From NCBI GenBank assembly GCA_044892525.1, contig CM097885.1, forward strand, positions 29,762,001 through 29,826,000: DNA of 64,000 bases. Direction: 5' to 3'. Below the pieces are notes generated by a model that did no database searches, was not told the DNA's origin, and saw only the letters and a list, made by a program, of their open reading frames with translations. Origin of the DNA: Schmidtea polychroa (lineage: Eukaryota). How positions within the stretch are numbered: position 1 is the first letter of the stretch; each line of letters begins with the position of its first letter. This document shows positions 11,301-54,095 of the stretch, in pieces. The position numbers and the translations under genes were made by a program.

Positions 11301-13410
11301 CAAAAAACAAATAAAATATAAAAATATCTATTGAAGAAGATATGAAAATATTTGGAAATAAAAATATATACAATTTTCAAAAATTTATTATTTATTTAAA
11401 AAGTTCAAATATTGAATAGAAAAATATTTTATTCAAAATTCTAAAAAAATATCGAAAATATTAAAAAACCATTTAATTTTTATATAATTATTGAAAATTT
11501 AGATCAAGTTGATATTTAAAAAATTAGAATGTAAAAATTATATTTATAGAAAATATATCTAAAAAGAATTTTAAATCAATGAAAAATCAAAATTCAGAAC
11601 AATTCAGAACCTCGTCCAAATAAAATTGGAAAAACCCCTTATAACCTTCCACCAGTATCCAAGATAAAGTACAACAAAAACGAAATGCCAAATTATAGTA
11701 AAATAATCAATTAACAGTTTAATATATATATATATATATATATATTTCATTTCTTATTCCTTGTGATCTCCAATGCTTCGAATTGAAACAGTTTTTCTCG
11801 TATGTCTTGTGATGACATTTAGATAAAAACTTTCGTTTCTTGGAATCTGGATGTTAGTGGGCTGATAATATCTGGTTGGTAATTGGTTGTTATTATCTAG
11901 TTATTATCTAGTTATATTCGATAACTAACAGCTTCTACAAAATCCAAAGAATCTACTAGGTCATCCTGGAAGACTAATCCGAGAAATTGATAACGTGTTT
12001 AGTCTTTTATCAAAAGGTGAATGCATTTAAAATTAGGACAGGATATGTTATCAGATTACACAAAAATCCATCATAATTTAATATCAAATAAAATAAGTAG
12101 ATTATTTAACAAAATTAAATTATTTTTAGATAAAGAAATACCAATCGAAACAAGAAGAAAATATGTCGTTTGTATTATGTTTTGAGTATGATTTAATTAT
12201 TGGAGATTCAATAATAATAAAAATTAAGATTGAATTAATTGTTGAAATATTAAATTTATCACAGAAAATATCTCGATGTTAGAGGATATGGGTCTTTTAT
12301 TAGAAAGTTAATTTATTAATAAAAATAATTTAAAATATACAAAAAACAAATAAAATATAAAAATATCTATTGCCTAAGATAAATATCTCAAAATTAGAGT
12401 ATATGGGTCTTTTATTAGAAAGTTAATTTATTATTAAAAATAATTTAAAATATACAAAAATTAAATAAAATATAAAAATATCTTTTGGCTAAGATAAACA
12501 TTTTTAGAAATTAAAATGTAAACAATAATTATTTAAAATTGAAAGTTCAAATATTGAATTAAAAAAAATTTTTTTGGCAGAATGGGTTTATTTAATTATA
12601 GTTGAATTATTTGTATTTTTTTAAAGTTAAAAATGTAAATGTGTATGTAAGTCATAAATATCATAAGAAAATTTAAATGATAAAAATTAATTTATTATTA
12701 AAAATAATTGAAAATATACAAAAAACAAATCAAATTTAAAAATATCAATAAAAATATTTAGAAATAAAAGTTAAAACAATTTTTAAAATTTAATATTTTT
12801 TTTTAAAAATGGAAGGTCAAATATCGAATTTAAAAATATTTTAATCCAAATTTAAAAAAAACATTTAATTATAATAATAATATTGAAATTTTAGATCAAG
12901 ATGATAATAAACAATTAGAATGTTACAATTATATTTATGAAAAATATATATAAAATATCAAACTTTAAAGAAAATTATATCAGAATATGATTTTAAAGAT
13001 AAAAAATATATTAAAATTTCAAATATATTTTAACAAAAAATATTGAAGTACCAACAGATTTATAATAACTCTAACAGTTATATAAATACATTTTTTTAGT
13101 TTAACTAATTCAATGAAAAAGAATTTTAAAACAATGAAAAATTCGAAATTCAGAACAATTCAGAACCTCGTCCAAATGAAATTGGAAAAAGCCCTAAATA
13201 ACTTTCCACCAGCATCCAAGATGAAAAACAACGATAACTAAATGCCAATTAATAGTAAAAAAAATAATTAACAGTTTAATCAATAACTTATATATAATTA
13301 AAAATAAATAAAAAAATTAAAAAAATTAAATCATTAAATTATATTATATTTCTGATTATTCTTGAATGAAGATTTTGAACTTTTTGAATTCTATGATTGT
13401 TGAGTTCTCA
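8321..13410. repeat. AT-rich tandem repeat, unit about 2168 bp, about 2.3 copies, with internal diverged sub-repeats and a (TA)n tract
   Basis: TATCATAAGAAAATTTAAATG at 8321, 10491 and 12659; (TA)n-TTTCATTTCTTATTCC near 9577 and 11745; related diverged sequence upstream from about 7240. Confidence 0.92.
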
Positions 13411-13619: not shown

Positions 13620-13980
13620 CATTGAGTAGCCTACAGATGTCACAAGAGACTCAGACACTGTAGAGCTGTCAAATCCAATAGAACTCACAACTATCGAGCA
13701 ACCATGTAGAAGCATGGAAAATAATGAGACCGCAATCTCTACAGTAAACAACGAAAACATAGAAATTGACGGAACAAGTCGGGGAATAATAATAAAACCC
13801 ATTGCACCTGTACTCAAAGAAAATATATCAAATAACGAAACAAGAAGGCAATCAAGACAAGATAAAAATATCAGATCCAAGAGTCAGAAGAAAGAAAGAC
13901 AAATAATTGACTCCGATAGCCATTGATACCACAAAACAAAACAAAAAACTACGTACCGGTGGAGACCATCAACGGCAAAT
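13620..13980 (+). mobile_element. Diverged fragment of retrotransposon N-terminal linker
   Basis: Resembles 1345-1645 (NNENIEI..KNIRSKS.KK, CGTACCGGTGGAG..CAACGGCAAAT). Confidence 0.7.
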
Positions 13981-14210
13981 AATTGGCTTATGGTAGTTAA
14001 AAAACATCCAATAGCCAGTTAACCGAATGGAAAAATGCCTTGAAAATATTTTTAGCATAAAAGCCCACATAATATAGTTAATAAACTATAATATGCAGGC
14101 AATTAGTTAATCTAAATTTCAATCTAGAAATTTAAAGTTAATTTTAAAAACGACATGAATGAATCATAAAGACTCAATACATATCTACACAATGAATGAT
14201 TCATAAAGAA

Positions 14211-14806
14211 TCAAATCATCGCGCATGGGGATGAAGTTCAAAATCTCGCAGTTTACACCACTCGAATTCTTACGCTTCCCCGACCGTAAAGTAAGTCGTC
14301 TACAAACGATTTAATGCCAACACGTAAATCATTAAAAATGATTCAAACATCCAAACTATTTTCATAGAATGGTTAGAGTTTAAATATATGGCTAAGCCAC
14401 ATCCACTAACTTGCGTTAATGAATAATAATATTGCCTCATTACGAGGATGGCACAAAATATCATGATTTTTAGGCGAGATTCAGACTTAGAGGCGTTCAG
14501 TCTTAATCTCTCGGATGGTAGCTTCGTGCCACTGACCTTTTGATCAAGCACATTTACCAGTGATCCGAATCTGCGGTTCCTCTCGTACTGACCAGAATTA
14601 CTATTATCATGACAAATTATATAGTAGGGTAAAACTAACATGTCTCACAACAGTCTAAACCCAGCTCACGTTCCCTATTAGTGAGTGAACAATCCAACGC
14701 TTTGCGAAATCTGCTTCGCAATGATAGGAAGAGCCGACAACGAAGGATCAAAAAGCGACGTCGCTATGAACGCTTGGCCACCACAAGCCAGTTATCCCTG
14801 TGGTAA
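14211..14806 (-). rRNA. 28S rRNA: 3'-terminal ~600 nt of 28S rRNA, pseudogenic fragment
   Basis: Minus strand has GGGATAACTGGC, GTCGGCTCTTCC, GAACGTGAGCTGGGTTTAGAC, the sarcin-ricin loop AGTACGAGAGGAACCG (14574-14589) and GTAGACGACTTA; several universally conserved bases are substituted. Confidence 0.95.
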
Positions 14807-16836
14807 TAGCACAAATTCGAAAATCGGAGAAGATGAAAACATCACAACAATATCAGAAATACAAAAATTACATCAAAAAAACAGTCATTTGGAATCAGGA
14901 ATGCAGATAATGATGAAAATGATGCAATCATTGACTGAAGAAATAAATACTCTAAAAAAATGATGGACAAATCACAAAATGGGAATGAAACAGATAAAAA
15001 TAATCAAAGAAACAGTTATGCCCAAATTGCCAAAAAATCAAATAGCAATTTAAATTTCCAAGAAAATGATAAAAATTTGAATTTTACAAATTGTAAAAAA
15101 AATTCAAATTCGGAAGAAAATAATAAAAATTTAAATTTAAATTCAAATTTAAATACAGAAAATCAAGAGAATTTAAATATTTTAAAATCAAATATTAATG
15201 ATTTTAAAATTTCGAAGAATACATCATTTAAAAATTTTAAAAATAAGAAAGATTTTATAAATAATAAAAATGATTTTAAGCCAATAATCAATCAACACTG
15301 AAATCCAGATCTGCGCTGAGAAAATTAATACTACAACACTGAATTCTCAACCAGTAGAATCAAACAGAAAGAGAAGAAAGGCAATCTTAGCAAGTGATGA
15401 AGAGCAAAATCTTCCAAAAAAGACTAATAATCATAAAGAGCAACCCATATTCGACCAACCTGAAAAATTGATTGGAGGAGGACCAAGTGATAATGAGAAC
15501 TTCCAGATCCACGTTACTAATGAACTAACCTACAAATGTGCTCTGATTGGATGCCAATCCAAATCTGAATCATTAGCCGGGATTAAACAGCATGTATCAA
15601 GAGCCCATAAAATCAGGACAACATACACTAAATGCCATCAATGACCAAACAATATTCAACAACATGAAATTGAAGAACATGTCAAATATCATAAAGAGTT
15701 GACAAATAAATATAAAGATGCGAAAATGGATGTCATAATTCCAACAAAAAATGACATTCCTTCAAACATCGCATGACTAGCACAGTCAGCTATCGAGGCT
15801 CAAATAAGATCAATCATAAAAGAGCCTAAGAACAAAGATAGCATAATCTGTTACTTAAATCCCCAGTGCGCTAATGACCTAATATCAAACAACAGGAATG
15901 GCCTCTTTAAAAAGTTAAAAATGGATGCCCTTGTTGGATGTGAGCTTACTATTTGGCTAATCCATTGGAATAAAAGTCATTGAACTGTATACCTTGCAGA
16001 AAGGAAAAACAGGACGTCAGTAATTATGGACCCTGACAATCAAATGTCTCAAGAACTTAAGATTTCCATCAAAAAGAAAATAGATGATATACTGAGAATA
16101 ACTTCCTCCGAGCAAGACAATGAAATGCAATTAATGAACATCCCAATCTATCCAACTCAGACAAACAAATATGATTGTGGAGTGTTCGTTATTCAATATA
16201 TAATGGACTTCCTAGAAAATCCGGAGAGGCCCATATTCAATATGCCCGACTCCGATAAAATAAGAACCCAAATAACATCAAGCATATTAGAGGATATCAA
16301 AAGATACAAAAAATGCTCAAATGAATCAAAGAAAGAAGATATAGAAGATGCTATAAACCAATTTAGATTACACCAGCTATCAATAAACGATATACTAAAT
16401 TGGCTCAAACACAGATTTCTAAAAGATCCTAAACCGAGAAGGGCATGCAGAAGCGAAAATAAAAAACCCAATCTATGCTCATACCAAATACAGAGATTAT
16501 ACTCAATAAACTCTGGCAAAGCGATAATGCAAATACATAATGAATCATGCAAGGTTATTGACCTAACATCAACGTCAATGGACCTGCATTTTACAAAACC
16601 AAAGCCACCAAAAATACAGAACATGATTAATATTGCGTACAAAAGACCAGAATGGGAATCCTCAAAGCCAATTTCAGAGAAAGATGTATTCTTTGCAATA
16701 AAAAATAGCAAAGATACAGCGCCAGGAGAGGACGGAATTCCGGTCAGAGCATAGAAAGAATGGATGCCTGAGGACCCATTGACTCCAATATTCAATAGAA
16801 TAATCGAATCCAAAACTATCCCTGATTCTTGGAAAA
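14807..16836 (+). pseudogene. 5' half of NeSL/R5-like retrotransposon (subfamily C) inserted antisense in 28S
   Basis: Abuts 28S at CCCTGTGGTAA; coiled coil, two C2H2-like fingers, Ulp1 motifs (YDCG), APGEDG; several stops and frameshifts. Confidence 0.9.
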
Positions 16837-17845
16837 ATAATATAATTTAATGATTTAATTTTTTTAATTTTTTTATTTATTTTTAATTATATATAAGTTA
16901 TTGATTAAACTGTTAATTATTTTTTTTACTATTAATTGGCATTTAGTTATCGTTGTTTTTCATCTTGGATGCTGGTGGAAAGTTATTTAGGGCTTTTTCC
17001 AATTTCATTTGGACGAGGTTCTGAATTGTTCTGAATTTCGAATTTTTCATTGTTTTAAAATTCTTTTTCATTGAATTAGTTAAACTAAAAAAATGTATTT
17101 ATATAACTGTTAGAGTTATTATAAATCTGTTGGTACTTCAATATTTTTTGTTAAAATATATTTGAAATTTTAATATATTTTTTATCTTTAAAATCATATT
17201 CTGATATAATTTTCTTTAAAGTTTGATATTTTAGATATATTTTTCATAAATATAATTGTAACATTCTAATTGTTTATTATCATCTTGATCTAAAATTTCA
17301 ATATTATTATTATAATTAAATGTTTTTTTTAAATTTGGATTAAAATATTTTTAAATTCGATATTTGACCTTCCATTTTCAAAAAAAATAATTAAATTTTA
17401 AAAATTGTTTTAACTTTTATTTCTAATTATTTTTATTGATATTTTTAAATTTAAATTTTTTTTGTATATTTTCAATTATTTTTAATAATAAATTAATTTT
17501 TATCATTTAAATTTTCTTATGATATTTATGACTTACATACACACTTACATTTTTAACTTTAAAAAAATACAAATAATTCAACTATAATTAAATAAACCCA
17601 TTCTGCCAAAAAAAATTTTTTTAATTCAATATTTGAACTTTCAATTTTAAATAATTATTGTTTACATTTTAATTTCTAAAAATGTTTATCTTAGCCAAAA
17701 GATATTTTTATATTTTATTTGATTTTTGTATATTTTAAATTATTTTTAATAATAAATTAACTTTCTAATAAAAGACCCATATACTCTAATTTTGAGATAT
17801 TTATCTTAGGCAATAGATATTTTTATATTTTATTTGTTTTTTGTA
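16837..17845 (-). repeat. Inverted ~1-kb copy of the AT-rich repeat (about 12338-13347)
   Basis: Reads as the reverse complement, e.g. CATCTTGGATGCTGGTGGAAAGTTATTTAGGGC versus GCCCTAAATAACTTTCCACCAGCATCCAAGATG. Confidence 0.92.
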
Positions 17846-20800
17846 ATTGCAATCATTTTTCTGGATGGAAGTTATGAATTCCAAAAACCTATTGACCAGC
17901 ATAATGCAATACACTGGTTCAACTTCTTTATCAAAAGAACGATAGTCGGAGTACCAAGATCCTTCAATCTAAGGAAAAGTATACCATATCTTAATAAAAG
18001 CCAAACAGTTCCGCAGACCAATGTGGAAACAAATGGAGACATAACCAACCACTCTAACCTGAAAGGTCTACAATGCCGAGATATTAGTAGAAAAAGGAGA
18101 AAATGCTCAACTAATGAATCCGTAGAACATCAATCAAAGAGAAAAAATAATGAGGAAAATACTGAACAACCAGTAAATCAGGAAGAAGAAACACATGTAA
18201 CTCATCAAACCACAACAAGTCCCAATCAATCATTAAATGAACAAGCATGACGGGATGGGGAAAGGACAACAAGTGCAGTCCTACCCCCACAAGAAAATAC
18301 TATCATTTCAACACTCCAAAACCCTGACAACCGTCTAATAGGAGGAACAATGCAAATCAAACAAATTGAAGCTTCAATCGATCTAATAATTGACAATGAA
18401 TGCAGAATAGTTTGTGCAAAAGAAGGTTGCAACAAAACCTATACTGATATCTTCCATGCTGAGCACCATTCCAGAAATAAACATAATCTACCTTCTGGAA
18501 CAAGAACAAAGGTCAAATGTGTACAATGTGAGAACCCAATCGAAGGAGATCAAGTAAATGACCATATCAACAACCACAAAGACGAAAGAAAAGAAGACCT
18601 GATTAGACAAATGAATATCATCCTACCAAATAAAAGAGATACGCCTTACGGACCATATGATCTACTATCACAAGCGGCGTTGGAAATATATATTAGGAAT
18701 CTAATAATGTATGACAAAAGGGAAATAGCATACATTGGCCCCAGAGCATCAATATACCTTAACAACAACAATAAACACGCTCTGCTCAAAGAAATACAAC
18801 TGCACAACCTTGTCGGCTGGAAACTGGCAATCTGGCTCATCCACTGGAATGGTAGCCACTGGGCAGTGTACCTAGCTAATAAAAACACTAGACAATCCAT
18901 AATCCTGGATTCAGCTAACTCATTTACAATCAACCAAGAATTTTTAATGAAAAAGAATATGGATTCAATTCTTAATACCGCATCAGAAGAGGATAAACCC
19001 TTCCTGAGATTGCAGATTGAGCATAAACCTACCCAATCTAACCAATATGACTGCGGCCCATATGTACTACAATTCATAAAGGACTTTCTAAATAATCCTG
19101 AAAGAACTAGATACAACGAGCCAAACACGAAAGAAATTAGAGAAAAAATATGCGAATTAATAACGGAAGAATGAAAAAAATAAAGATAATGGAATAAAAC
19201 AAATCAATGATCCTGAAATCGCAGAGCTACTGAAAAAATTCTCACTACATCAATACACAATTGAACAGATCCTAGAAAATTTCAGAAGAATATACGAAAG
19301 AGACAATCTAAAACCAAAAAGAAATTCTAAACTAAAGATTCCAATGGCTAAATGCTCTTATCAGATCCAACGATTATATGCCATCAATCCTGGAAGAGCT
19401 ATTAATGAAATAAACAAAGCCACTGATTCTACTCCAGAACTACAAACAGAAGTAATGAACATCTACTTCACCAGACAAAAACCACAAACAAATCCAGAAA
19501 ATATTCTAATATCGAAAAGAACCGCTGACTGGATAACCGACAAAAAGATCAAAAACAAGGAAATCACAATAACAATCAAAAGAATGGAAGATAAAGCACC
19601 AGGAGCAGACAAAATTCCTATACGACAATGGAAAACCTGGAACAAAGATAGGGCATTAAAAGTGCTATTTAACCATATCATAAAACAAAAGAAGATACCA
19701 ATAAACTGGAAAACATTTATGACAAAACTAATTATAAAACCAGGAAAAGCCGAAGAAGCATCCAATCCATCTAACTGGAGACCGATAGCACTAATGCCAA
19801 CGGCCTATAGAATCCTAATGAAACTACTAAATAAAAGATTATTAAAATGGATCCATGACGGAAAGCTACTATCTCCATGGCAAAAGCATTTTAGAAAAAG
19901 AAAACGGATGCGATGAGCACAATTTCATAATCAATTGCCTTATGGAAAAAGCAAACAGAACAAGATACAAAGGCGAACAGATACACCTAGTATTCTTGGA
20001 CCTCGCAGACGCCTTTGGCAGTATGCCACACGAGGTGATTTGGTACACATTAGAGAGAATGGGGTTAAATAAAAACACCATTGAACTAATTAAAAATAGC
20101 TACCAAGACTGCTTCTCAATATACGAAAGCGGCGAATCCCAATCAGACAAAATTAAAATTGATAAAGGGGTCAAACAGGGATGCCCCTTGTCCATGACGC
20201 TATTTAGTCTATGTATAGAATTCCTCATAAAAGCTGTAGAGGATCTAAACAAAGGTGCCAAAATAGCAGAAACAAAAATAAGTATTCTAGCCTACGCAGA
20301 CGATTTGGTACTAATCGCAAATAACAAAGAGGACATCCAAATAATGCTTAACACCATATTCGAAGAGGCAAATAAAGCATGTCTAACCTCTAAACCTGCC
20401 AAATGTGGATATTTCAGTGAACAAGAAAACAATGATATCCCAATAATGATCAACAACCAGACAATTAGGAAAATCAACAACAATGAACTGTACACATACC
20501 TAGGAGTCAGAATAGGAGGACCTAAAAAAAGGAACAGACCAACTATTCAAGGAAGCAATCACCTACTCTGAAAAGATATTCAAATCAAAACTTAAAGCAT
20601 GTCAAAAAATAGAAGCATACCAAACATTTATACACTCCAAATTCGTATTCCCTCTCCAAGGAGAAGACATAAACAAAGGGAACATCGAAGAATACGATAA
20701 CCAAATCCGAACAAGAATCAAAAAAGATGTTATTGACCTACCTACAAATAGTCCATTTATGGATGCAATAATCTATTCCCCAAGAGCAAAAGGAGGTCTA

Positions 20801-22037
20801 GGAATAACAAAAGTCGCAGACGAGCAACTTATCCAGACCATCGCTAGATACCTAAGGCTATTTAACAGTAGCCACATGGACATCAGATGAATCCTAACAG
20901 AAGAAACAATTGATATTGCCAAGATCAGAACAAACCAGACAATCTATACCATTAAAGACGCAATAAAATGGCTAGATAATACGCATACCAACTCAAAAAG
21001 GAACGACACAAAATACAGTTGGATCACTAGAATCAAAACAGCAATAATGGGAATCATGAGAACCCATAAAATTGAGATAAAACTGTCCATTAATGAGGAT
21101 GACCAACTAGAAGCAAGAGTCAAATGTGCTACTGAAGAAACACCAGTAGTGGTCAAAGAAACGAATAAAATTTCAGCAACACTACACTGGATGATCAAAG
21201 AAAGCTATTTCAATAAATGGAAAGCAGCTAAATGCCAAGGCTACATCATAAGCCTCCCATATTCCAAGAAAATGGAATGGGAACTCCCACGGAACTTAGA
21301 TGATTCAGATTGGCAATTCATAATAAAAGCACGTGCCAACATGCTTGACCTAAGGAACAAGCAAGCAAACCAAGGAGGAAGACTAGCAGCAATAAACTGC
21401 AGGAAATGCGACTACCCAAGAGAATGCCAAGCACATGCCATCAACCACTGTGACTATGGTAAAAACAGTAGAGTAACAAAACACAACGAAATCCAAAGAT
21501 TGCTTACCGAATTACTCGAAACAAAAAAGTTAAATTACGAGACAGAAGCAATACCAAAAGAATCATCTGTGAACCTAAAACCAGACATCCTAATCAGAGG
21601 AGAATCAAAAAATACCATCATTGACATTAAATGTCCTTTCGATGACTAGGATACCATTGAACTGGCAAGAAACAAAAACCAAGACAAATATCGAAACTTG
21701 GCCACAGAGATCCAAACCAAGTCTGAAAAACCTACCACTGTAGAAACATTTGTGGTGTGTTCCCTTGGAACCCGGGATAAGAGAAATAACGAAATCCTCA
21801 GAAAACTTCAATTCAAATTTGACGAATATTCAAAAACAAAAGACAAAATGATCAAAGCCGTAATCAAAGGATCCAGATACACATTCGACCAGCACAGGGG
21901 CTTCATGACCTGATGCTTTAAATATACCAGTGACTAGTTCACTCAAGAATCCAGATATCCCACCTATTCTGTTTACAGAAAGGTTCTTAACTCATCCTTG
22001 TGATGACACTTTTTGTTATATTAATAAATATTTTGTA
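17846..22037 (+). mobile_element. Most complete NeSL/R5-like retrotransposon (subfamily D): C2H2 x2, Ulp1, RT, CCHC, restriction-like endonuclease, 3' UTR; disabled
   Basis: HW..LDS..QSNQYDCG; NWRPIAL; AYADDL; CRKC..HAINHC; R..KHNEI; KPDILI..IIDIK; AATAAA near 22023; multiple stops and frameshifts (e.g. 18248, ~19175, ~19890, ~20530, 21647). Confidence 0.93.
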
Positions 22038-22088
22038 TTTCTGACACCTCTTGCTACAAACTCTGTAAAAATCAAAAGGATCGATAGG
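22038..22088 (-). rRNA. 51-bp 28S target remnant at the 3' junction of element D
   Basis: TTTCTGACACCTCTTGCT...TCAAAAGGATCGATAGG is the antisense 28S sequence that normally continues from CCCTGTGGTAACTT. Confidence 0.85.
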
Positions 22089-23990
22089 GAACAAAACCAA
22101 TCAATGAATAAAACCATCAAATACATTGAACCAAGACTGGCAAACTTGCTTATCAATCGAAACTTGAGAACATTTCATAATGAAATCAAGATAGACTCCT
22201 TGATTGGATGGGAACTAATAATCTGGCTTATACACTGGAACAACTGCCATTGGATTGTCTACCTTGCTAATTTCGAGGATAAAACCTCCATTATCTTGGA
22301 TTCAGACAATCAGATGACAACATTGCAAAAGTGTTATATAAAAGACAGACTAGATAAATTCCTAGAAAATACAGTGGAAGAAAGAACCATCTTTAAATCA
22401 CTTGAAAACAGATTAATTCCTCAACAATCAAACGACTATGATTGTGGAACATATGTCCTTCAATTCATAGAGGACTTTGTGAATGAACCTGAAAGACTAA
22501 ATTATCAGACTCCAGACTCAATTAGAATTAGAAACATAATCGGGAAGCAGATTATGGAAGAATTAAAAGATGCCAAAAAGAATACACCAAAGAAGTCAAA
22601 TAAAGAAATAGACGAATTAATTCTCAAATTGAAGTTACTACAGATAGACATTCATTCAGTACTTCAATGGTTCACGAACAAATATAATGAATCAATCCCT
22701 AAACAAAAGAACAAAAGAGGTGCAAAGATCAACATCTCAAAATGCTCATATCAAATACAAAGATTATTTGCATAGCTCCAAAAAGAGCAATAAAGGAAAT
22801 ATATAAAAATGAGTCAGCCCCAGCAGACCTTCCGAAAAGCATCTTAGATGCTTACTTCATAAAAGAAAATTGATCTCGGAATGGCAGTAGGCAGTAATGG
22901 CTGTGATGAGCACAATTACATCATCCAGGCACTGACTGAGAAATCGAACAGAATTAAATACAAACACGAACAATGTCACCTGGCTTTCTTGGACTTGGCT
23001 GATGCATTCGGAAGCATCCCATTTTCTGTCATTTGGCATACAATGAGCATAATGGGACTCGATAAAACAACTATCGACCTATTAAAAGAATTGTATAAAG
23101 ATAATGTCACAAGATACAAAAGTGGAAAAACTGAATCGGAAAGGATAAACATTGTAAAAGGCGTGAAACAGGGTTGCCCACTATCAATGACCCTATTCAG
23201 CCTATGCATTCAATTCATTCTAAAAGAGATCATCAATATGAATAAAGGAGCAACAATGGCAGCACAAGATATTAACATCCTTGCCTATGCAGACGACTTA
23301 GTAATTGTGGCCGATTCTGCTAAAAACCTACAAATTCTACTAGGAAGAATTGAAGATCTAGCAAATAAAGCATGCCTAAAGTTCAAACCGGCAAAATGCG
23401 GATACTACAGAGATCCAAAAGACAATACATCACGAGTTATGATCTATAAAGAACAAATCAGATTAGTAAGTGAGGAAAACATATACACCTATCTTGGAGT
23501 CAGAATAGGTGATAAAAAGAAAAAGAACCTAAATAAGCTTTTCGAAAAGGTTAAAGATCATACTAAATCGATTTTCACTTCAAAACTCAGAAATGACCAA
23601 AAACTGGGGGCTTATAACACCTTTGGCTAATCAAAATTTGTATATATACTACAAGGAGAAGATATCTCAAAAATAAATATTGAAAAATACGATAATGATA
23701 TAAAAGCCATAATAAAAAAGCACGTGCTAGATCTCCAAGATAACAGCCCATTCACAGACTCAGTGATTTACTCACCACGAGAAAAGGGAGGCTTAGGAAT
23801 CACAAAAGTGTTCGATGAGCAGATAATCCAAACAATAAATAGAGCTCTGAAACTCCTAACAAGTAACCACAAACTGATCCAAGAAAAGATTGAAGATTTG
23901 GAAAATGCATTGAAATGGTTGGATGGATCAATAAAATACAAGAAAAACACAAACGCCAAGACAACGTGGATAACACGAGTAAGAGAAAAC
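22089..23990 (+). pseudogene. Internally deleted NeSL/R5-like fragment (subfamily E): Ulp1 plus RT
   Basis: WLIHWNNCHW..LDS..QQSNDYDCG; early RT motifs missing near 22870-22880; FLDLADAFGSIP and AYADDL present. Confidence 0.9.
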
Positions 23991-24395
23991 TTTTTTAGAC
24001 GACCATCTGAAATAGTCCAAAAAATTAGACTAAGTATTTTGGCTAGTGTACAAATGCTACTGCAAAAACATTTTCAAAAAATGTGGTAATGAAGAGATTT
24101 TGACAATTGGAGGAGATGAAATTCAGATTGCAGATCTTACAAAGTCAGAAATCAGCCAAAACAAACCAGATAATCAGAATACTTCAACAATTTCTGAATT
24201 AAAGAATGAGAATCGTCAATTACGTTTGGAAATGAAAAACATGAAGAAAATGATGGAACAAATGATAAAATCAATTGAAACTTTAGAACAAATTATCAAA
24301 GACTCTGCCAAAATTTCTACAGAAAATAGAAAAACACAACCAAATTCAGATCAGATTGTGAAAATTCGAGAAAAAGAGCATTATTTAAACAAAGT

Positions 24396-27300
24396 GTGTG
24401 TTACACATTAATTGTATACAAGATTGTAGATGCAGTCATTGAGGAACCAGTCCAAGATACTGTGGACCTGCCAATACCAATAGAGCCCACAGTTGTCGAA
24501 GAACCACAGATAACCACAAACAACGAAAATATAGAAATTAGTGAAACAGATAGAGATTTGGTAGAGAAACACACAACACCTGCACCAACATCAGTCAGCA
24601 AATCAAAACAACAACCAAAAAATATCCGGTCCAAGAGCATAAAGAAAAGAAGACAAGTGGATGACACCGAATACCAAGAAAACACAAAGGATAACAAAAA
24701 AATACGTACCGGTGGAGGACCGTCAACGGCAAATACTCCACTGACCAATCTTATTATACCAAATATGAAAATCAACGATGAACTAAAAATCCAATGCAAT
24801 TGCAAAAAAAATAGATACTCGTACTCAACAGATACCAATGCCACCAAACACTTCAAAGAGTTACATCCACAATCCGGAGATCCAATAATAGAGTGCGGAA
24901 TATGCAAAGCCATCATCACTATCAATGAAGCAATAGAACATATAGCAGTCCATAGAGAGAACAATACAAAAGAAAGGAACATACAGCAGCCCGCAATCAA
25001 ACCAACAGAGGAGGACATCCCTACGGAGACCAGCTGACTATCACAGACAGCGATAGAATATTACATAAAATTTCTATCGCTCAGTATACCTACTCCAAAC
25101 ACCGTGGCCTATATCAAACCAACATGTGCCACGGACCTGATAGAGAATAATAAGGCTGGTCTCTACAGTAACATCCATTTGGATACAATCGTGGGCTCTG
25201 ATAGGGTCGTATGGCTGATCCATTGGAAACTCTGTCACTGGTCAATATACCTAGCGGACAAAGAAAATAGGGAGTCGGTAATTCTTGATACTGATGACCA
25301 AATATCCGAATCAGAGAAAAGTACAATAAAGGCCAAAATGGATGAAATACTAAGGATGACTACACAGGATCAAGCCCCATTCAACAGAATATCAATTGAC
25401 GAATACCCCAAACAAGATAACGATTATGATTGTGGAGTGTTCGTTCTTCAATATATAATGGACTTCTTAGAAAATCCAGAGAGACCCTTATTCAATATGC
25501 CTGATTCAGATAAAATAAGAACACAAATTACAACGAGCATACTAGAAGATATCAAAAAATACAAAAAATGCAACAATGAAACAAAGAATGAAGACATAGA
25601 AGACGCCATAAATCAATTTAGACTACACCAATTATCAATAAATGACATACTTAATTGGTTCAAGAACAGATTCCTAAAAGATCAAAAGCCGAGAAGAGCA
25701 TGCAGAAGCGAAAATAAAAAACCCAAGCTATGCTCATACCAAATACAGAGATTATATACAATAAACTCGGGCAAAGCAATAATACAAATTCACAATGAAA
25801 CATGCAAAGTTATTGACCTAACATCAACGGCAATGGACCTGCATTTTATAAGAACAAAGCCTCCAAAGATACAAAATATGATTAATATTACGGATAAAAG
25901 ACCAGAATGGGAATCATCAAAGCCATTTACAGAGAAAGATGTATCCATTGGAATAAAAAACAGCAAAGATGCAGCACCAGGAGAGGATGGAATTCCAATA
26001 AGAGCATGGAAAGAATGGATGCCTGAAGACCCATTAACTCCAATATTCAACAAAATAATAGAATCCAAAAACATCCCAGATTCATGGAAAACTTATGTTA
26101 CAAAGTTAATTAAAAAACTAGGCAAAAGTAACCAAGCACACAATCCGGCAAATTGGAGACCAATAGCATTAATGCCCACAAGTTATAGAATTTTTATGAA
26201 AATCCTTAACAAAAGAATTCTCCAATGGATCCACGAACACAGGTTAATTTCGAAATGGCAAAAGGCAGTGAATATATCCAATGGGTGTGATGAACATAAT
26301 TACATCATCACTGTTCAAAAAGAAAAGCCCAACAGAAAAAGATACAAAGGATGTGAATGCCACCTAGTGTTCTTGGATCTTGCGGATGCCTTCGGCAGCA
26401 TTCCACACGAAGTGATCTGGCATACTTTAGAACAGAAAGGCCTAAATAAAAACACCATAAGCCTATTGCAAGAATGCTATAAAGACTGTCACACTATATA
26501 TCAAAGTGGTGACACCAGATCAAGCCAAATCAAACAAGTAAAAGGTGTTAGACAAGGATGCCCACTATCAATGACCATCTTCAGCCTCTGTATTGAATAT
26601 CTAATACAAGCTGCAATAAATAGTGGGAAAGGAGTCGAGATAGCTGGAGAGAAAATAAGCATTTTAGCATATGCGGACGATCTCGTTCTTATGGCACCAC
26701 AACACTATCAAATCCAAGAAATGCTCAACATAATAGTGGAACAAGCAAAGATGGCTCACCTTATATTTAAACCCGAAAAGTGTGGTTACTACCTAAATAA
26801 AAAAGATGCTATTGGATGGGAAAACAACATCTTTCTCGACGGAACAAAGATCAAACATATAAATGAGGAAAATCTTTACACTTACCTTGGTGTCACAGTT
26901 GGTAGCACAAAGAAAAACGATCTAAATCAAATTTTCAAAGAAGTTGAAGACAAAGCAATCAGCATTTTCAGATCTTCGTTGAGGGCTCACCAGAAAATCG
27001 AGGCATATAACATCTTTTGCCATTCAAAATTCATATTCATCTTGCAAGCCGAAGAAATAGCTAAAAGCGAAGCTGGAAAATTTGATGACAAAATTAGAAT
27101 GCTAATAAAGGATAAAGAGGTGCTTGACCTACAACATAAAAGCCCTCTAATGGACGCAATTTTTTACTCCCCGACCGAAAAAGGAGGCATTGGTATTACA
27201 AAGATAGTAGACGAACAGATCATACAAACAATTTCTCGTTTCCTAAAGTTGATAAACAGCAGTCATTCGGCAATAGTAAACATATTAACGGAAGAATTAA

Positions 27301-27641
27301 TAGATGTAGCCGAAACAAGAACCGATTCCCCCATCAACTCATTGTCAGATTCGTTAAAATGGTTAGATGAAACATATGCCCATAAAAGAACAAATTCGGC
27401 AAAAAAATCATGGTTAGATAGAGTAAAGAATGCAATAACTCAATTATACAACGATCATGATATCAAATTGACTTTCCTATCACGAAATATTGGCACTGGA
27501 TGTAACATCAAATCCTACAATCAAGAAAAACCTGAGGAAGTCTTTCCTCCATTCTTAGACGAAGCCTCAAAAAAGCTACACAAAATGATCAGAGAAGGCC
27601 TATATCAAACCAACATGTGCCACGGACCTGATAGAGAATAA
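24396..27641 (+). pseudogene. Copy 2 of subfamily A ZF-Ulp1-RT ORF
   Basis: Translation identical to 1306-4551. Confidence 0.93.
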
Positions 27642-30600
27642 TAAGGCTGGTCTCTACAGAAACATCCATTTGGATACAATCGTGGGCTCTGATAGGGTCG
27701 TATGGCTGATCCATTGGAAACTCTGTCACTGGTCAATATACCTAGCGGACAAAGAAAATAGGGAGTCGGTAATTCTTGATCCTGATGACCAAATATCCGA
27801 ATCAGAGAAAAGTACAATAAAGGCCAAAATGGATGAAATACTAAGGATGACTACACAGGATCAAGCCCCATTCAACAGAATATCAATTGACGAATACCCC
27901 AAACAAGATAACGATTAAGAAGTTTTTGCAAATGAGTAGTCAAACAAAAATTTGGAAGAAATGAAAGCTTGGGCCGCCACAACCAGTTATCCCTGTGGTA
28001 AACACACAAATTCAACAATCGAAGAGGATGAAAACATCGCAAAGGAATCAGAAATACAGAAAATTCACGAAAAAACCAATAAATTAGAGTCTGGAATACT
28101 GATGATGATGAAATGGATACAAACTCTAACCAATGAAATAAAAACTCTATCGGAAAAATTGGACAAATCGCAAAATGGGAATGAATCAGACGGAGGAATT
28201 CAAAGGAAAAGCTATGCCAAAATTGCCAAAAAATCAAATACAAATTTAAATCTCAAAGAAAATAACAAAAATTTAAATTTTACGAATTATAAAAATTCAG
28301 AAAATCCAGAAAATCCAGATAATAATTTAACTTTCAAAGAAAATAATTAAAATTTAAATTCTACGAATTATAAAAATCCAGAAAACCCAGAAAATTCTGA
28401 TAATAATTTAATTTTCAAAGAAAATAATGAAAATTTAAATTCTACGAATTATAAAAATTCAGAAAATCCAGAAAATTTAAAAGATTTTAAAAATTTAAAA
28501 AATGGAAAATCAATTAAAAATTTTAAAACTCAGTATACCTACTCCAAACACCGTGGCCTATATCAAACCAACATGCGCCACGGACTTAATAGAAAATAAT
28601 AAGGCTGGTCTCTACAGAAACATCCATATGGATACAATCGTGGGCTCTGATAGGGTCGTATGGCTGATCCATTGGAATCTCTGTCACTGGTCAATATACC
28701 TAGCGGACAAAGAAAATAGGGAGTCGGTAATCCTTGATCCTGATGACCAAATATCCGAATCAGAAAAAAACACAATAAAAGCCAAAATGGACGAAATTCT
28801 AAGAATGACCACACAAGAATAACAATTGACGAATACCCCAAACTATGACTGTGGGGTGTTCGTACTCCAATACATATCCGACTTCCTATCCAGTGACAGA
28901 GGGATCAGATTTACGACCCCAAACTCAATGGAAATCAGAGAGCAAATTAAAAATATCTTAATGGAAAATATAGACAAATATGATAGCCTAGCCTCAATCA
29001 AGAAAAATGAGGCTATTGAGGCTATCATAACCAGCTTCCGCCTACACAAGACAAACATCGACCAATTCCTCAAATGGTTCACTGATTTATTCAATAAAGA
29101 TCGAAAGCCACAAAGGAATCATAGAGATAAAACATATACAATTACCAAATGCTCCTACCAGATACAGAGAATATTCACAGTGGCACCTGGTAGGGCTATC
29201 AAAGAGATAGACAGAATCCTGGAACCGGCTACCGATTTAACAACAGCGGTGATAGACACATACTTCGAAAGACCCACTCCTCCAAAAATGAGAGAAAAAC
29301 CAGCACCCATTAAAAGTGATCCGGAGTGGGAAACAAATAAACCAATAACCAGGGCAGACATCGATGAAGCAATAATAAACAGCAAAGATGCTGCACCTGG
29401 TATGGACCAAATCCCACTTCGACAATGGAGGGAGTGGATGGCATTTGATGCGCTAACACCAATCTTCAACAAAATCCTGGAGACGCATCAAATTCCCGAA
29501 GTATGGAGAAAATATTTATTTGAATTAAAGAATGAGAATCGTCAATTAAGTTTGGAAATGAAAAACATGAAGAAAATGATGGAACAAAAGATAAAATCAA
29601 TTGAAACTTTAGAACAAATTATCAAAGACTCTGCCAAAATTTCTACAGAAAATAGAAAAACACAACCAAATTCAGATGAGATTGTGAAAATTCGAGAAAA
29701 AGAGCATTATTTAAACAAAGTGTGTGTTACACATTAATTGTATACAAGATTGTTATCACAAGATTGCTTGTTTTTATTAATAAATTTTTGACTCTGACAC
29801 CTCATGCTGGTGTTCCTCATCTGGGAAAAGTTTGCTGACTTATCTAAGATTTTTTAATTTTTAATTGAGCTTAATTCTGAATTTATTTCTTTTTGTAATT
29901 TTTCTATTGGTTTAAAAATATTTTAAATTGATTTTAAATTTTTTAAATGATTTTTATTATTACTTTTAAAATTTCTTGGATTAATTTTATTATTTTTTGT
30001 ATTTTTAATATTTAAATTTAAATCATGGGTATTTCCTTGAAAGTTTTTAAATTTTCTTGGATATTTATTTGAAAATTTAATTTCATGTTTAAATTTTTAT
30101 TGTTTTCTTGAAATATTTTATTATTCTTTGAAATTAATTTTTCTTGTATTTTCTTGTATATATAATAAAATTCATGTTTTTATCCAAATTTAACATTATT
30201 TCCAAGCTTTTTTCTTGATAAATAAATTTGTCTTGGATATTTTCTTGAAGATTTGACATATTGTGTATCACTTTTATTATTTCCATCTGTAATTTTCAAA
30301 TTGAAGTTTTGTTTTTAGTATTTTTTATCTGGGAAAGGTTTAAAAAAATATCGAAAATATTAAAACAATACCATTTAATATTTATAATTTTATTGAAAAT
30401 TTAGATCAAGATGATATTAAAAAAACTAGAATGTAAAAATTATATTTATAGAAAATTTATCTAAAAATTTATATAAGAATTTTGATAAAAAATAAATGAT
30501 TAAACTACAAATGCTTAAAAATTATATATAACATTAAAAATATATCTAAACATTTAAACTTTAAAGAAATATATATTAAAATATAATTTTAAAGATAAAA

Positions 30601-32608
30601 AATCTTTAAATTTAAAAGAAATATGTTACCAAAGAATATTGAACTATCAACAGAAAATAATAAAAACTCTGAATGATAATTGAATAATAATTTTTAAAAT
30701 GTTACTTATTCAATTAAAAACAAAAAACGAATCCAGATAATATTCAGGAAAGCAATAACAATGCCAAAAAACCAAGATCCAATAATGAAAAACGCAGCAA
30801 CTCTGCCCAAAAAAATGAAATCAAAAATTCAGAGACTCCCATAAAACCATTAAACTTTGACAATAATGTCAAATCTAATGATATAAATATATTTCTATTC
30901 CATGAAAATACCAGATTATCAAAAACATATATAGAAATAGAATATTATAAGAAGAAATTTGTAAAAATCTGTCAAAAATGATAAAAAATAGTGAATGTTA
31001 TAAAAACGATAAATTTGTCGTTTAAATTATCGTTTTTATTGCAGTTTTAATTTTTAATGTTTTGAGTATGATTTAATTATTTCAAGATTCATTAATAATA
31101 AAAATCAAGATTAAATTAATTTTTGAAATATTAAATTTATCACAGAAAATATCTCAAAGTTAGAGGATATGGGTCTTTTATTAGAAATAAAATATAAAAA
31201 TATCTATTGAATAAAATAAGCATTTTTAGAAATAAAAATGTAAACAATTTTAAAAATTCAATATTTATTTGAAATTTGGAAGTTCAAATATTAAATTAAA
31301 AAAAATCTTTTTTGGCAGAATAGGTTTATTTAATTATAGTTGAATTATTTGTATTTTTTTAAAGTTAAAAATGTAAGTGTGTAAAATATTATTGATATAA
31401 ATAAAAAAAATATCATAAGAAAATTTAAATGATAAAAATTAATTTATTATTAAAAATAATTGAAAATATACAAAAAACAAATCAAATTTAAAAATATCAA
31501 TAAAAATATTTAGAAATAAAAGTTAAAACAATTTTTAAAATTTAATATTTTTTTTTAAAAATGGAAGGTCAAATATCGAATTTAAAAATATTTTAATCCA
31601 AATTTAAAAGAAACATTTAATTATAATAATAATATTGAAATTTTAGATCAAGTTGATATTAAAAAATTAGAATGTTACAATTATATTTATGAAAAGTATA
31701 TCTAAAATATCAAACTTTAAAGAAAATTATATCAGAATATGATTTTAAAGATAAAAAATATATTAAAAGTTCAAAAATATTTTTACAAAAAATATTGAAG
31801 TACCAACAGATTTATAATAACTCTAACAGTTATATAAATAGTTTTTTTAAATTTAACTAATTCAATGAAAAAGAATTTTAAAACAATGAAAAATTCGAAA
31901 TTCAGAACAATTCAGAACCTCGTCCAAATGAAATTGGAAAAAGCCCTAAATAACTTTCCACTAAATGCCAATTAATAGTAAAATAAATAATTTACAGTTT
32001 AATCAATAACTTATATATAATTAAAAATTAAAAAAATTAAATCATTAAATTATATTATATTTCTCATTATTCTTGAATGAAGAGTTTGAACTTTTTGAAT
32101 TCTATGATTGTTGAGTTCTCAATTTCAAAATTAGAGTATATGGGTCTTTTATTAGAAAGTTAATTTATTATTAAAAATAATTTAAAATATACAAAAAACA
32201 AATAAAATATAAAAATATCTATTGAAGAAGATATGAAAATATTTGGAAATAAAAATATATACAATTTTCAAAAATTTATTATTTATTTAAAAAGTTCAAA
32301 TATTGAATAGAAAAATATTTTATTCAAAATTCTAAAAAAATATCGAAAATATTAAAAAACCATTTAATTTTTATATAATTATTGAAAATTTAGATCAAGT
32401 TGATATTTAAAAAATTAGAATGTAAAAATTATATTTATAGAAAATATATCTAAAAAGAATTTTAAATCAATGAAAAATCAAAATTCAGAACAATTCAGAA
32501 CCTCGTCCAAATAAAATTGGAAAAACCCCTTATAACCTTCCACCAGTATCCAAGATAAAGTACAACAAAAACGAAATGCCAAATTATAGTAAAATAATCA
32601 ATTAACAG

Positions 32609-32648
<40 letters not shown>

Positions 32649-34380
32649 CATTTCTTATTCCTTGTGATCTCCAATGCTTCGAATTGAAACAGTTTTTCTC
32701 GTATGTCTTGTGATGACATTTAGATAAAAACTTTCGTTTCTTGGAATCTGGATGTTAGTGGGCTGATAATATCTGGTTGGTAATTGGTTGTTATTATCTA
32801 GTTATTATCTAGTTATATTCGATAACTAACAGCTTCTACAAAATCCAAAGAATCTACTAGGTCATCCTGGAAGACTAATCCGAGAAATTGATAACGTGTT
32901 TAGTCTTTTATCAAAAGGTGAATGCATTTAAAATTAGGACAGGATATGTTATCAGATTACACAAAAATCCATCATAATTTAATATCAAATAAAATAAGTA
33001 GATTATTTAACAAAATTAAATTATTTTTAGATAAAGAAATACCAATCGAAACAAGAAGAAAATATGTCGTTTGTATTATGTTTTGAGTATGATTTAATTA
33101 TTGGAGATTCAATAATAATAAAAATTAAGATTGAATTAATTGTTGAAATATTAAATTTATCACAGAAAATATCTCGATGTTAGAGGATATGGGTCTTTTA
33201 TTAGAAAGTTAATTTATTAATAAAAATAATTTAAAATATACAAAAAACAAATAAAATATAAAAATATCTATTGCCTAAGATAAATATCTCAAAATTAGAG
33301 TATATGGGTCTTTTATTAGAAAGTTAATTTATTATTAAAAATAATTTAAAATATACAAAAATTAAATAAAATATAAAAATATCTTTTGGCTAAGATAAAC
33401 ATTTTTAGAAATTAAAATGTAAACAATAATTATTTAAAATTGAAAGTTCAAATATTGAATTAAAAAAAATTTTTTTGGCAGAATGGGTTTATTTAATTAT
33501 AGTTGAATTATTTGTATTTTTTTAAAGTTAAAAATGAAAGTGTGTATGTAAGTCATAAATATCATAAGAAAATTTAAATGATAAAAATTAATTTATTATT
33601 AAAAATAATTGAAAATATACAAAAAACAAATCAAATTTAAAAATATCAATAAAAATATTTAGAAATAAAAGTTAAAACAATTTTTAAAATTTAATATTTT
33701 TTTTTAAAAATGGAAGGTCAAATATCGAATTTAAAAATATTTTAATCCAAATTTAAAAAAAACATTTAATTATAATAATAATATTGAAATTTTAGATCAA
33801 GATGATAATAAACAATTAGAATGTTACAATTATATTTATGAAAAATATATATAAAATATCAAACTTTAAAGAAAATTATATCAGAATATGATTTTAAAGA
33901 TAAAAAATATATTAAAATTTCAAATATATTTTAACAAAAAATATTGAAGTACCAACAGATTTATAATAACTCTAACAGTTATATAAATACATTTTTTTAG
34001 TTTAACTAATTCAATGAAAAAGAATTTTAAAACAATGAAAAATTCGAAATTCAGAACAATTCAGAACCTCGTCCAAATGAAATTGGAAAAAGCCCTAAAT
34101 AACTTTCCACCAGCATCCAAGATGAAAAACAACGATAACTAAATGCCAATTAATAGTAAAAAAAAATAATTAACAGTTTAATCAATAACTTATATATAAT
34201 TAAAAATAAATAAAAAAATTAAAAAAATTAAATCATTAAATTATATTATATTTCTGATTATTCTTGAATGAAGATTTTGAACTTTTTGAATTCTATGATT
34301 GTTGAGTTCTCAGTTTCTGGTTGTTTGGTAGTGGAAATCTCTCTGTCTTTGGCGGCCAATGCGTTCATATTTTCTTTTGA

Positions 34381-42286: not shown

Positions 42287-43510
42287 TTATACTAGCACGG
42301 TTCTATTTGCAGTAATTTGAACTTCATTTTCAAATACTCCATATATTATAACATGTACTGGTTCAGTAATGGCCTTTGCAAACTTTATATCCAGTCGTAA
42401 ATTCCCGTTTTGTGGTAATTGACTCTGATTTAAATCAAAATCGGGAGCTAGAACAAATGTGAAAAATGGGTATTTGCTTTTAAATTCTTCAAGAGTTATT
42501 CCGCAATTCAAGTTTTTATCTAAATAACCCAGATTTCTAACAATACTCTGCATATATGTCGCACAGTAATTATCATTCTCGAAATCTTGAGTATATGTTT
42601 CTCTATAATCAGTATTTTTCGATAAAGTCAATGAAGTAACACCAAAATTTTTGAAAATTGAGCTGGAAGCAGTATACGATCCATTATATTGCGTTTCACT
42701 TTGAAATGTTACCAGAATAAAATTAGGCATTCTTCTGTCACCAAATATTTGTTCTTTATAGAATGATGAAGCACCTTTAGCAATAGCAAATTGTACAATT
42801 TCCTTTGTTTTTAAAGGATAAATTGCATGTTTTGAATTAAGCCCCAATTGATGACCAGCTAATACTGACGGGTCTACTCGAACTCTTCTCACCAATAATT
42901 TTGCATCAACTAATTGACATATTGGTGCACCAGTTGCACTAGTAAGAGACAATGCAGAATCAGATCTTTTCAGTCTAATATGTATATTAACTCCCGGTAG
43001 TAAATATTTCGGTTGATCCATAAAATCAAGTTGTAATGATGAGCACATAGTGAATACTTTTGAGCCTTTAACCCACTTTTTTCTTTCATCATCTGCTGCT
43101 GCATAACCCATAGGTGTAAGACAGGTATTTTTAGTATCTGAATTGTAATTTAAAATAGTTTCTATCAAAGCCTTGTGAATGAATGTATTATTTCCACCCT
43201 CAATCTTGATATTATTAAATCCCAACACTGCATCTTTAAACAGAGTATGAAACATGAAATTGTTTGGTAATACATCCGCATTGGCATCCAAAACCTTTCT
43301 ATCTTTATCTACAACCTTGATCTGAACAGTCAATAAAGTATCGTTCAAATCTAAATATTCAGTTTGCGAACCATTAATATAAAACTCGATATCATTTCTA
43401 CTATCAGTAATTGAATTCATAGGAAAAACTTCCTCAAAGGCACCAAATTCTATTACTGCCTGGGGCGACGGTCTATCAAATATACATAATTCGGATTTAC
43501 CACAAATCAT
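42287..43510 (-). CDS. Polinton major capsid protein (double jelly-roll, PY-like)
   Basis: 407 aa; KSELCIF, IEF.I.G...YLDLNDT.L, KYLLPGV.I.I.L.R and GNLRL.IKF motifs as in Polinton MCPs; position within the capsid module. Confidence 0.9.
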   Translation of the reverse strand: MICGKSELCIFDRPSPQAVIEFGAFEEVFPMNSITDSRNDIEFYINGSQTEYLDLNDTLLTVQIKVVDKDRKVLDANADVLPNNFMFHTLFKDAVLGFNNIKIEGGNNTFIHKALIETILNYNSDTKNTCLTPMGYAAADDERKKWVKGSKVFTMCSSLQLDFMDQPKYLLPGVNIHIRLKRSDSALSLTSATGAPICQLVDAKLLVRRVRVDPSVLAGHQLGLNSKHAIYPLKTKEIVQFAIAKGASSFYKEQIFGDRRMPNFILVTFQSETQYNGSYTASSSIFKNFGVTSLTLSKNTDYRETYTQDFENDNYCATYMQSIVRNLGYLDKNLNCGITLEEFKSKYPFFTFVLAPDFDLNQSQLPQNGNLRLDIKFAKAITEPVHVIIYGVFENEVQITANRTVLV

Positions 43511-43869
43511 TTTGCAAATATAGTTCCATGTCCTTTCATTCGTTTGTTTATACGCGATATTCCATGCCCTTTACGTTTTGGAGCTGGGACTGGAGGTGTA
43601 TCTTTTTGAAACATACCAGCAACTCCAGGTAGAACCTTCCCTAACTCAGCTAAAGCATTTGTTTTTAGGGATGGTAATATTTTCTGTTCATTAATAATCA
43701 CATCTTTTGCAGTTTTCATGCCAAAACTACCAATACGTTTAAGAATGGGAAGTGCAAATCTCCCTATTGTTTTTAACCAACCTGATCCATACTGTTTACC
43801 AATAAAATATGGTAATTCACCACCAGATTGGCTATCACTATACATACTAATAATATCGGAATTAGCCAT
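43507..43869 (-). CDS. Small basic Polinton core/structural protein
   Basis: 120 aa; QSGG, QYGSG and KGHG Gly motifs resembling adenain cleavage sites; basic C-terminus; overlaps both neighbours. Confidence 0.7.
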   Translation of the reverse strand: MANSDIISMYSDSQSGGELPYFIGKQYGSGWLKTIGRFALPILKRIGSFGMKTAKDVIINEQKILPSLKTNALAELGKVLPGVAGMFQKDTPPVPAPKRKGHGISRINKRMKGHGTIFAK

Positions 43870-45916: not shown

Positions 45917-45974
45917 TACAACAAGAAGATTTAATATTAAATTTAATGTCTGGTAATGAAGGATTAGCACCCAT
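45747..45974 (-). CDS. Small putative myristoylated protein overlapping the integrase 5' end
   Basis: MGANPS N-terminus and SSCC motif; ACAATGG start just after the upstream stop. Confidence 0.5.
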   Translation of the reverse strand: MGANPSLPDIKFNIKSSCCNGEDLDEPGRRSRFWWSGKIKEKSSEFEKGNSEVVIRPACVQFEQTNAETIPNKSI

Positions 45975-45977
45975 TGT

Positions 45978-46466: not shown

Positions 46467-46479
46467 GATTTATATGTTT

Positions 46480-47118: not shown

Positions 47119-47222
47119 TTTTTAAATTTAAACTATATAATTATTGTTTATATTGATAATTTAAATGAACTCTGTTTTTAAATACCTATATATATCAAAG
47201 TTTTTAAAATTATTTCATTAAA

Positions 47223-53800: not shown

Positions 53801-54095
53801 AGATTCGTTAAAATGGTTAGATGAAACATATGCCCATAAAAGAACAAATTCGGCAAAAAAATCATGGTTAGATAGAGTAAAGAATGCAATAACTCAATTA
53901 TACAACGATCATGATATCAAATTGACTTTCCTATCACGAAATATTGGCACTGGATGTAACATCAAATCCTACAATCAAGAAAAACCTGAGGAAGTCTTTC
54001 CTCCATTCTTAGACGAAGCCTCAAAAAAGCTACACAAAATGATCAGAGAAGGCCTATATCAAACCAACATGTGCCACGGACCTGATAGAGAATAA
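50850..54095 (+). pseudogene. Copy 3 of subfamily A ZF-Ulp1-RT ORF
   Basis: One visible amino-acid change (NII to NIL) relative to 1306-4551. Confidence 0.93.

Follow-up and report, generated by a model that had tools for sequence, protein, structure and literature searches.

In the passages covered of Kojima & Jurka 2015 (PMC4640811), the planarian families LIN9_SM, LIN24_SM and LIN26_SM are specific for 28S ribosomal DNA (rDNA) and share one lineage with R5 (LIN/R5, NeSL clade). LIN9_SM, from Schmidtea mediterranea, is drawn on the antisense strand, with its 5′ boundary after a sequence ending in TTATCCCTG(T/C)GGTAAC and its 3′ boundary before TTTTCTGACACCTC (S6 Fig of that paper, in the part covered). 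NeSL-1 and Utopia-1_TSP also have a Ulp1-like protease ahead of the reverse transcriptase (RT) and restriction-like endonuclease (RLE), but their targets, in the sources covered, are the spliced-leader or U2 genes of nematodes. R2 enters 28S through target-primed reverse transcription (TPRT), giving uniform full-length and variable truncated 5′ junctions; its 28S leader, which derives from sense co-transcription and ribozyme cleavage, is thought to anneal to the target, so that a heteroduplex guides the uniform junctions (PMC3774820, in the parts covered). We analysed a window of 64,000 nt from Schmidtea polychroa (assembly GCA_044892525.1, contig CM097885.1, positions 29,762,001 to 29,826,000 of the forward strand), together with genome and metagenome loci collected in the course of the work (L numbers). 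These contain Ulp1-RT-RLE elements inserted antisense at the LIN9_SM site, and open reading frame 1 (ORF1) of these elements begins, in frame, with the upstream target half. We put at roughly 0.7 the probability of this reading as a whole, in which the elements likely carry their own internal promoter and anneal through the half-site when the 5′ end is joined. Their anatomy, specificity, junction geometry, frame and common 5′ end were observed directly in the copies.

Intact rDNA shows the two target halves side by side, with 781 exact uninterrupted sites, as a preliminary description of the window had supposed, and Rfam places the large-subunit (LSU) rRNA (RF02543) on the minus strand at window positions 14213–14854, in agreement with its claim that insertion runs opposite to rRNA transcription. 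The insertion site is ~545 nt (536–551) from the R2 site, which that description had placed in a different region of 28S, and ~630 nt (622–634) from the LIN24/26 site. The equivalent of E. coli A2451 is taken to lie within GGGATAAC, which would put the insertion site ~15–19 nt 5′ of it. The elements are inserted antisense between GGTAA(C) and (T)TTTCTGACACC of 28S, as in the LIN9_SM target group, and the 120-nt 28S line of S6 Fig matches the intact site here. This identity, together with the presence of two rDNA types, fits a dugesiid planarian as host. Judged by its sequence, the site is the published LIN9_SM antisense 28S target and not a discovery. The suspicion that a known family might already cover it was correct, and the proposal of a previously unassigned site falls on a ground that the preliminary description had itself named, since LIN9_SM is already assigned there (PMC4640811, part of S6 Fig).

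The 16-nt tail motif of LIN9_SM was absent from all 368 loci, with up to 2 mismatches allowed, and its 5′ end was not among the 30 clusters of 5′ ends from the collected loci. Because no 5′ end or 3′ tail in the collected loci matches the LIN9_SM ends in the part of S6 Fig covered, the families here appear to be sisters of LIN9_SM rather than LIN9_SM itself: target and orientation are the same, while several lineages occupy the site here and the terminal sequences differ (PMC4640811, in the parts covered). A metagenome scan for interrupted sites returned five stretches, none similar to the part of ORF1 belonging to the element itself or to ORF2; three proved to be variant rDNA, and the other two contain a different insert. 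In these two (contigs L366 and L367, from another eukaryote) an unrelated stretch of 1.7 kb is inserted close to the 28S position in question and may be a group I intron.

At least five endonuclease-bearing lineages (A, D, E, L129 and L151), with 48–58% amino-acid identity between endonucleases, share the site in the tabulated flanks of genome copies, which bears out the idea of several subfamilies at one target. Before the downstream half-site, the loci show 35 distinct tails when 60 nt are compared; a few of these are variants of rDNA or matches by chance. An intact family A copy in real rDNA (L247) has an ORF1 of 714 amino acids starting at the 28S ATG at −41, then TGA, then an ORF2 of 1089 amino acids. 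This ORF1 begins with a coiled-coil-like region and ends with two zinc-finger-like motifs. Family A ORF2 has a Ulp1-like protease (PF02902, E 2.5e-10) upstream of the RT (PF00078), a trait of the NeSL clade; a CCHC finger and KPD...IDIK endonuclease motifs follow the RT in families A and D. The best PDB matches of the family A proteins, and thus the nearest solved structures, are R2 proteins. With their fixed 3′ junction and variable 5′ truncations (L125, L314, L320, L321), the elements are, by sequence, RLE-type site-specific non-LTR (long terminal repeat) retrotransposons.

Specificity for the site is high in families A and N. Young family A gave 42 exact 3′-end matches, of which 41 were examined and 40 lie at the site; the exception (L313) is in a look-alike of the core (TGTGGT ... 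TTTCTGAC). For family N, which is non-autonomous and has ORF1 only, 20 of 21 matches are at the site. The unrelated flanks that would have spoken against specificity were thus not the outcome. The family N exception (L312) sits in the rDNA spacer, within a 26-nt stretch that copies the upstream half-site; the register is unchanged and the DNA further downstream is unrelated, which suggests that target recognition may involve mostly the upstream half (~26 nt). The data do not show programmability; the preliminary description had spoken of a programmable-looking element. Families A and N are also present in a second rDNA type (L232, L251), which is 89–92% identical to the main one. R5 (Girardia tigrina), which we take to be a planarian, 28S-specific RT-RLE element with two ORFs, resembles the families here in these respects. 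R5 reportedly inserts beside the R2 site and only in type II rDNA units; the site here, in contrast, is ~545 nt from that of R2, and both rDNA types are used. R9 (Adineta vaga) is reportedly also antisense in 28S, at another site and with a long target duplication; it differs from the elements here in belonging to the R2 superclade.

The junctions were compared in a table of 65 rows, of which those beyond the full-length copies are truncated, mosaic, decayed or nested cases. Full-length insertions had lost 2 nt of 28S in 24 family A rows, 1 nt in 13 family N rows and none in L129, and no duplication of more than 1 nt was seen among these full-length A, N and L129 rows. The preliminary description was therefore right about the absence of duplication, and its loss of 2–4 nt becomes 0–2 nt in complete single insertions elsewhere in the genome. 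In 5′-truncated copies the junctions are variable, some with microhomology (L125, through GGTAA in ORF2; L320 and L321) and some with larger 28S deletions. In two mosaic junctions (L234, L322) the upstream part is real 28S and the final 20–33 nt carry variants of the element type, and in L221 a leader plus half-site is joined to real 28S. The mosaic junctions point to homology-guided joining at the 5′ end. Inserts of 74–140 nt at the same site in dispersed 28S fragments (L093, L100, L119) are heavily truncated copies or resemble short interspersed elements (SINE-like). A further lineage (L143–L149; G000:C3, 0.70–0.88 Mb) has a 3′ end at which the downstream half-site occurs twice, at a distance of 82 nt; one of the two is probably element-borne, and the arrangement recalls the 28S-derived 3′ untranslated regions (UTRs) of vertebrate R2.

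The antisense half-target stays open in one reading frame, which has ATGs at −86 and −41 from the junction. In L247 it runs into ORF1, then TGA-CTA, then ORF2, all in one frame. TGA-CTA, a read-through context, forms the ORF1/ORF2 border in families A and B (L247:2803–2808; window 15774–15779 and 1945–1950), and in these families the first Met of ORF2 lies past the Ulp1 histidine; in D, L129 and L151 there is no stop at the border and the ORFs are fused. An ORF of at least 60 amino acids occurs in 14 of the 30 clusters of 5′ ends, and in 10 of these 14 the longest downstream ORF is in the target frame. Of the four exceptions, two are truncated copies, one is joined through a leader and one is decayed. 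Most of the 12 LIN9_SM 5′ rows in S6 Fig, compared by eye, likewise have diverged half-sites and an in-frame, coiled-coil-like ORF, and the in-frame half-site is therefore probably a trait of the whole LIN9_SM target group, as far as the covered part of that figure goes.

The elements also carry a diverged half-site of their own (41–49 nt), behind a short ATG-bearing leader, in tandem 5′ units. Among the 10-kb loci in real 28S, 19 family A copies have one unit and 8 have two; for family N the numbers are 5 and 8. These internal half-sites could be inert remnants left by target duplication and by unequal crossing-over within the rDNA, with no role in joining or coding. R2 of several arthropods does carry duplicated upstream 28S at its 5′ end that later decays, in the literature covered, and the excess of one-unit over two-unit family A copies fits this explanation. 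The spacings between successive half-sites (369, 660, 612, 264 and 156 nt), however, are multiples of three in 24 of 27 cases, so that unit lengths keep the frame, and insertions and deletions inside the half-site compensate each other (+1/−1). The half-site is, moreover, retained across lineages only ~50% alike, dispersed copies start with leader plus half-site, and the mosaic junctions argue for a role in joining. We regard the relic explanation as quite improbable.

A common 5′ end was found for the N-type copies: 15 of 16 begin at −90 to −96 from the junction, mostly in unrelated flanks, as does L335; L113/L114 have their start at −91 within real 28S. A start at the last leader was rejected as the main route: the sequence of the upstream unit is retained at 22 of 22 last-leader sites in N and at 26 of 27 in A. 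In one copy (L319, G000:C405), family A sequence begins in the last leader and ~1 kb of 28S is duplicated around it. The RNA 5′ end at −92 could instead be cut, by a ribozyme or a host nuclease, from a longer antisense read-through transcript, much as that of R2 is cut from a sense co-transcript, with the same elements and the same annealing. The R2 precedent (in the parts covered) and the sharpness of the 5′ ends favour such cleavage, and the internal promoter of the alternative is itself an inference. Against this, Rfam gave no ribozyme in a two-unit copy at E≤1, although a divergent ribozyme could escape detection; the 5′ 140 nt fold no better than shuffled sequences (z 0.04 and 0.72); and the end falls at one position in leaders and real 28S alike, although their sequences from −92 to −50 are different. 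Cleavage is, on balance, unlikely. Three hairpins follow the last leader (folding z −3.4).

Under the favoured reading, with its internal promoter, transcription would start ~92 nt upstream of the GGTAA junction, in the element leader or, for the first unit, in real antisense 28S. The first ATG (in the leader, or at −86 or −41 in 28S) is in the ORF1 frame, and translation from it would make 14 antisense-28S codons the N-terminus of ORF1. ORF2 (Ulp1-RT-CCHC-RLE) would follow in the same frame, as a fusion in some lineages and by predicted read-through of TGA-CTA in others. By analogy with established TPRT, the RLE would nick within CTTTT and reverse transcription would be primed there; the ORF2 protein of family A is expected to nick within GGTAACTTTTCTG, and it is probably the upstream ~26 nt on which recognition would depend. 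The half-site, copied into cDNA, would then pair with upstream 28S and prime the second strand, producing the uniform junction with 0–2 nt lost, while truncated cDNAs would join by microhomology instead. Unequal exchange between leader repeats may add or remove whole in-frame 5′ units.

R2 is sense-oriented, co-transcribed, processed by a ribozyme and built of a single ORF without Ulp1. The elements here, in contrast, are antisense, not in the sense orientation at AAGG^TAGC, carry a half-target in the ORF1 frame and have no ribozyme detected by Rfam or folding. An antisense element cannot gain a leader in the way R2 does, and a self-carried copy of the half-site would solve this. In its strongest form, to which we give slightly better than even odds, the proposal is of a lineage whose ORF1 start codon and first 14 codons come from the antisense peptidyl-transferase region. 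Such a lineage would hold an in-frame half-target of its own that serves both to encode protein and to anneal, would fix its RNA start 92 nt upstream and would recognise its target by no more than the upstream ~26 nt. It would be a self-contained alternative to R2 that bears its own promoter, and its intact copies are available for biochemical work.

Several points weigh against these proposals. The start site, promoter, translation and read-through were deduced from the ends of DNA copies, and the −91 start in real 28S was seen in one event only (L113/L114). L319 starts in the last leader and has no half-site. The older copies of N type lie scattered beyond rDNA, and a TGG/AGGT core is present at the 5′ flank of only about half, which suggests that their specificity was relaxed. 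Copies in rDNA may have been multiplied by unequal exchange, so that counts overstate independent insertions; several events are nevertheless independent, given their differing truncations. The lineages counted in the frame test (nominal p=0.004) are related to one another, the T-rich tails of the elements blur the position of the nick by several bases, and the RTs of the target-sharing lineages form one clade with P0001 (support 100/99) in a tree without named R5, NeSL, LIN9 or LIN proteins.

The window itself is a dead, nested, amplified pile of Ulp1-RT-RLE elements. Self-comparison shows that positions 1–13232 match 49545–62769 at 99.8% and that 1–11235 match 23091–34317 at 99.5%; the window is part of a large segmental-duplication array, and its repeated junctions are therefore single events. 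The upstream motif CCCTGTGGTAA ends at 4911 and 14806, where the preliminary description had placed it, and also at 28001, 34573 and 54455; the downstream motif TCTGACACCTC starts at 6703 and 22040, with the 28S match running from 22038 to 22088 as described, and also at 29793 and 56247.

The interval 14766–22088 had been read as giving both junctions, and one could imagine a single element there at an unassigned 28S site, with motifs and orientation as described. The interval is instead a mosaic. The 3′ part of 28S rDNA (13980–14806, minus strand, 96.6% identical to an uninterrupted rDNA unit from this genome) ends at the insertion site, and its antisense half-target (14766–14806, plus strand) supplies an ATG and 13 codons in frame with ORF1 of element B; the 65 open codons from 14766 are homologous to the ORF1 N-terminus of intact family A. 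The 5′ part of element B (14807–16835, plus strand, 74% DNA identity to the family A 5′ end) contains a decayed ORF1, the Ulp1 protease (PF02902) and the start of the RT region, matching ORF2 amino acids 1–351, and has lost its 3′ end. An unrelated inverted AT-rich repeat (16836–17800, minus strand, placed at about 16832–17720 by self-comparison; 91% to 8095–9002 on the other strand) and a family-A-like ORF1 fragment (17840–18041, plus strand, 90% DNA identity to family A 1241–1409) separate it from element D. The 3′ part of D (18042–22037, plus strand), delimited by domain and sequence comparison, has zinc fingers, Ulp1, RT, CCHC, an RLE (KPDIL...IIDIKCPF), a stop at 21911–21913 and a 3′ UTR. 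It has frameshifts and stops and lacks its own 5′ end. Its 3′ junction is the downstream 28S half-target (22038–22088, minus strand, 51 nt, 100% to intact rDNA).

Two Ulp1 domains, the inverted repeat and a fragment of a third family between the junctions rule out one element, and with the site already published for LIN9_SM the probability of the single-element explanation is close to nil. Both junctions are recoverable in the genome and not in this interval, where the target loss cannot be read from the pair 14806/22038 because they flank different elements, B and D. Element D, proposed as a test protein, was rejected as broken and as having array copies (99–100%) for its best-scoring matches, 40 being scored per search; intact family A is better suited.

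Immediately downstream, a fragment of the further lineage E (22089–23987, plus strand) has Ulp1 and RT by Pfam and is 90–94% identical to L137. The supposed rDNA junction at 4911 was rejected: the ~45 nt upstream are element leader, and 4828–4911 (plus strand) is a leader with an element-borne, diverged upstream half-target copy, the upstream sequence being common to the dispersed L116 and a family A unit end. One base is inserted and one deleted in this copy, with the frame kept. It is followed by an ORF1 N-terminal unit of an A-related subfamily (4912–5431, plus strand, 75% DNA identity to family A 1–505), with 212 open codons from the half-site ATG. The tentative junction near 999 is a real 5′ end, of another subfamily (993–1337, plus strand, 106 open codons in the target frame); it is joined through GTGGTAA, only 7 nt matching the target, and adjoins an rDNA spacer subrepeat fragment at 897–991 (87% to spacer). 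At 6703 the expected motif is present, and 6664–6720 (plus strand) comprises a 3′ tail and then a degenerate downstream half-site that matches 28S at only 15 of 18 nt; L106 has a similar flank. An integrase with chromodomain and a Pox_A32-like ATPase at 42287–47687 (minus strand) are Polinton/Maverick-like remains.

The rDNA loci themselves yielded further observations. The spacer carries, ~1120 nt past the site (L123; L312, G000:C3:794000–803900), the 26-nt upstream half-site copy in opposite orientation, with 25 occurrences in long loci; the N copy described above is inserted in it. On the rRNA-sense strand this copy is complementary to the 28S peptidyl-transferase region and is a candidate decoy, relic or pairing element. 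At the R2 site, all 49 occurrences in rDNA loci read CTCTCTTCAGGTAGCC and not the canonical AAGG^TAGC context; in L227 an RT element of another clade starts at the R2 site, in the orientation opposite to family N.

In the literature covered, including parts of PMC5035012, PMC7650587 and PMC13188248, the in-frame half-site and 5′ units are not described, although the R5 and R9 papers, Repbase entries or the rest of S6 Fig could mention them; the passages of PMC4640811 and parts of S6 Fig covered draw diverged half-sites as flank and do not remark on frame. In this same literature we also found no account of the ~−92 start or of homology-guided 5′ joining from mosaic junctions. The interest now lies in the 5′ architecture and the intact copies, the site itself being already known. 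The findings bear on how antisense rDNA elements are expressed and on how non-LTR elements join their 5′ ends, for which these families offer natural experiments in the form of mosaic junctions, the spacer decoy insertion and one- versus two-unit copies. The families also supply natural ORFs, still intact, for a second 28S site, which lies 545 nt from that of R2, is biochemically unstudied and may be of use in rDNA gene insertion.

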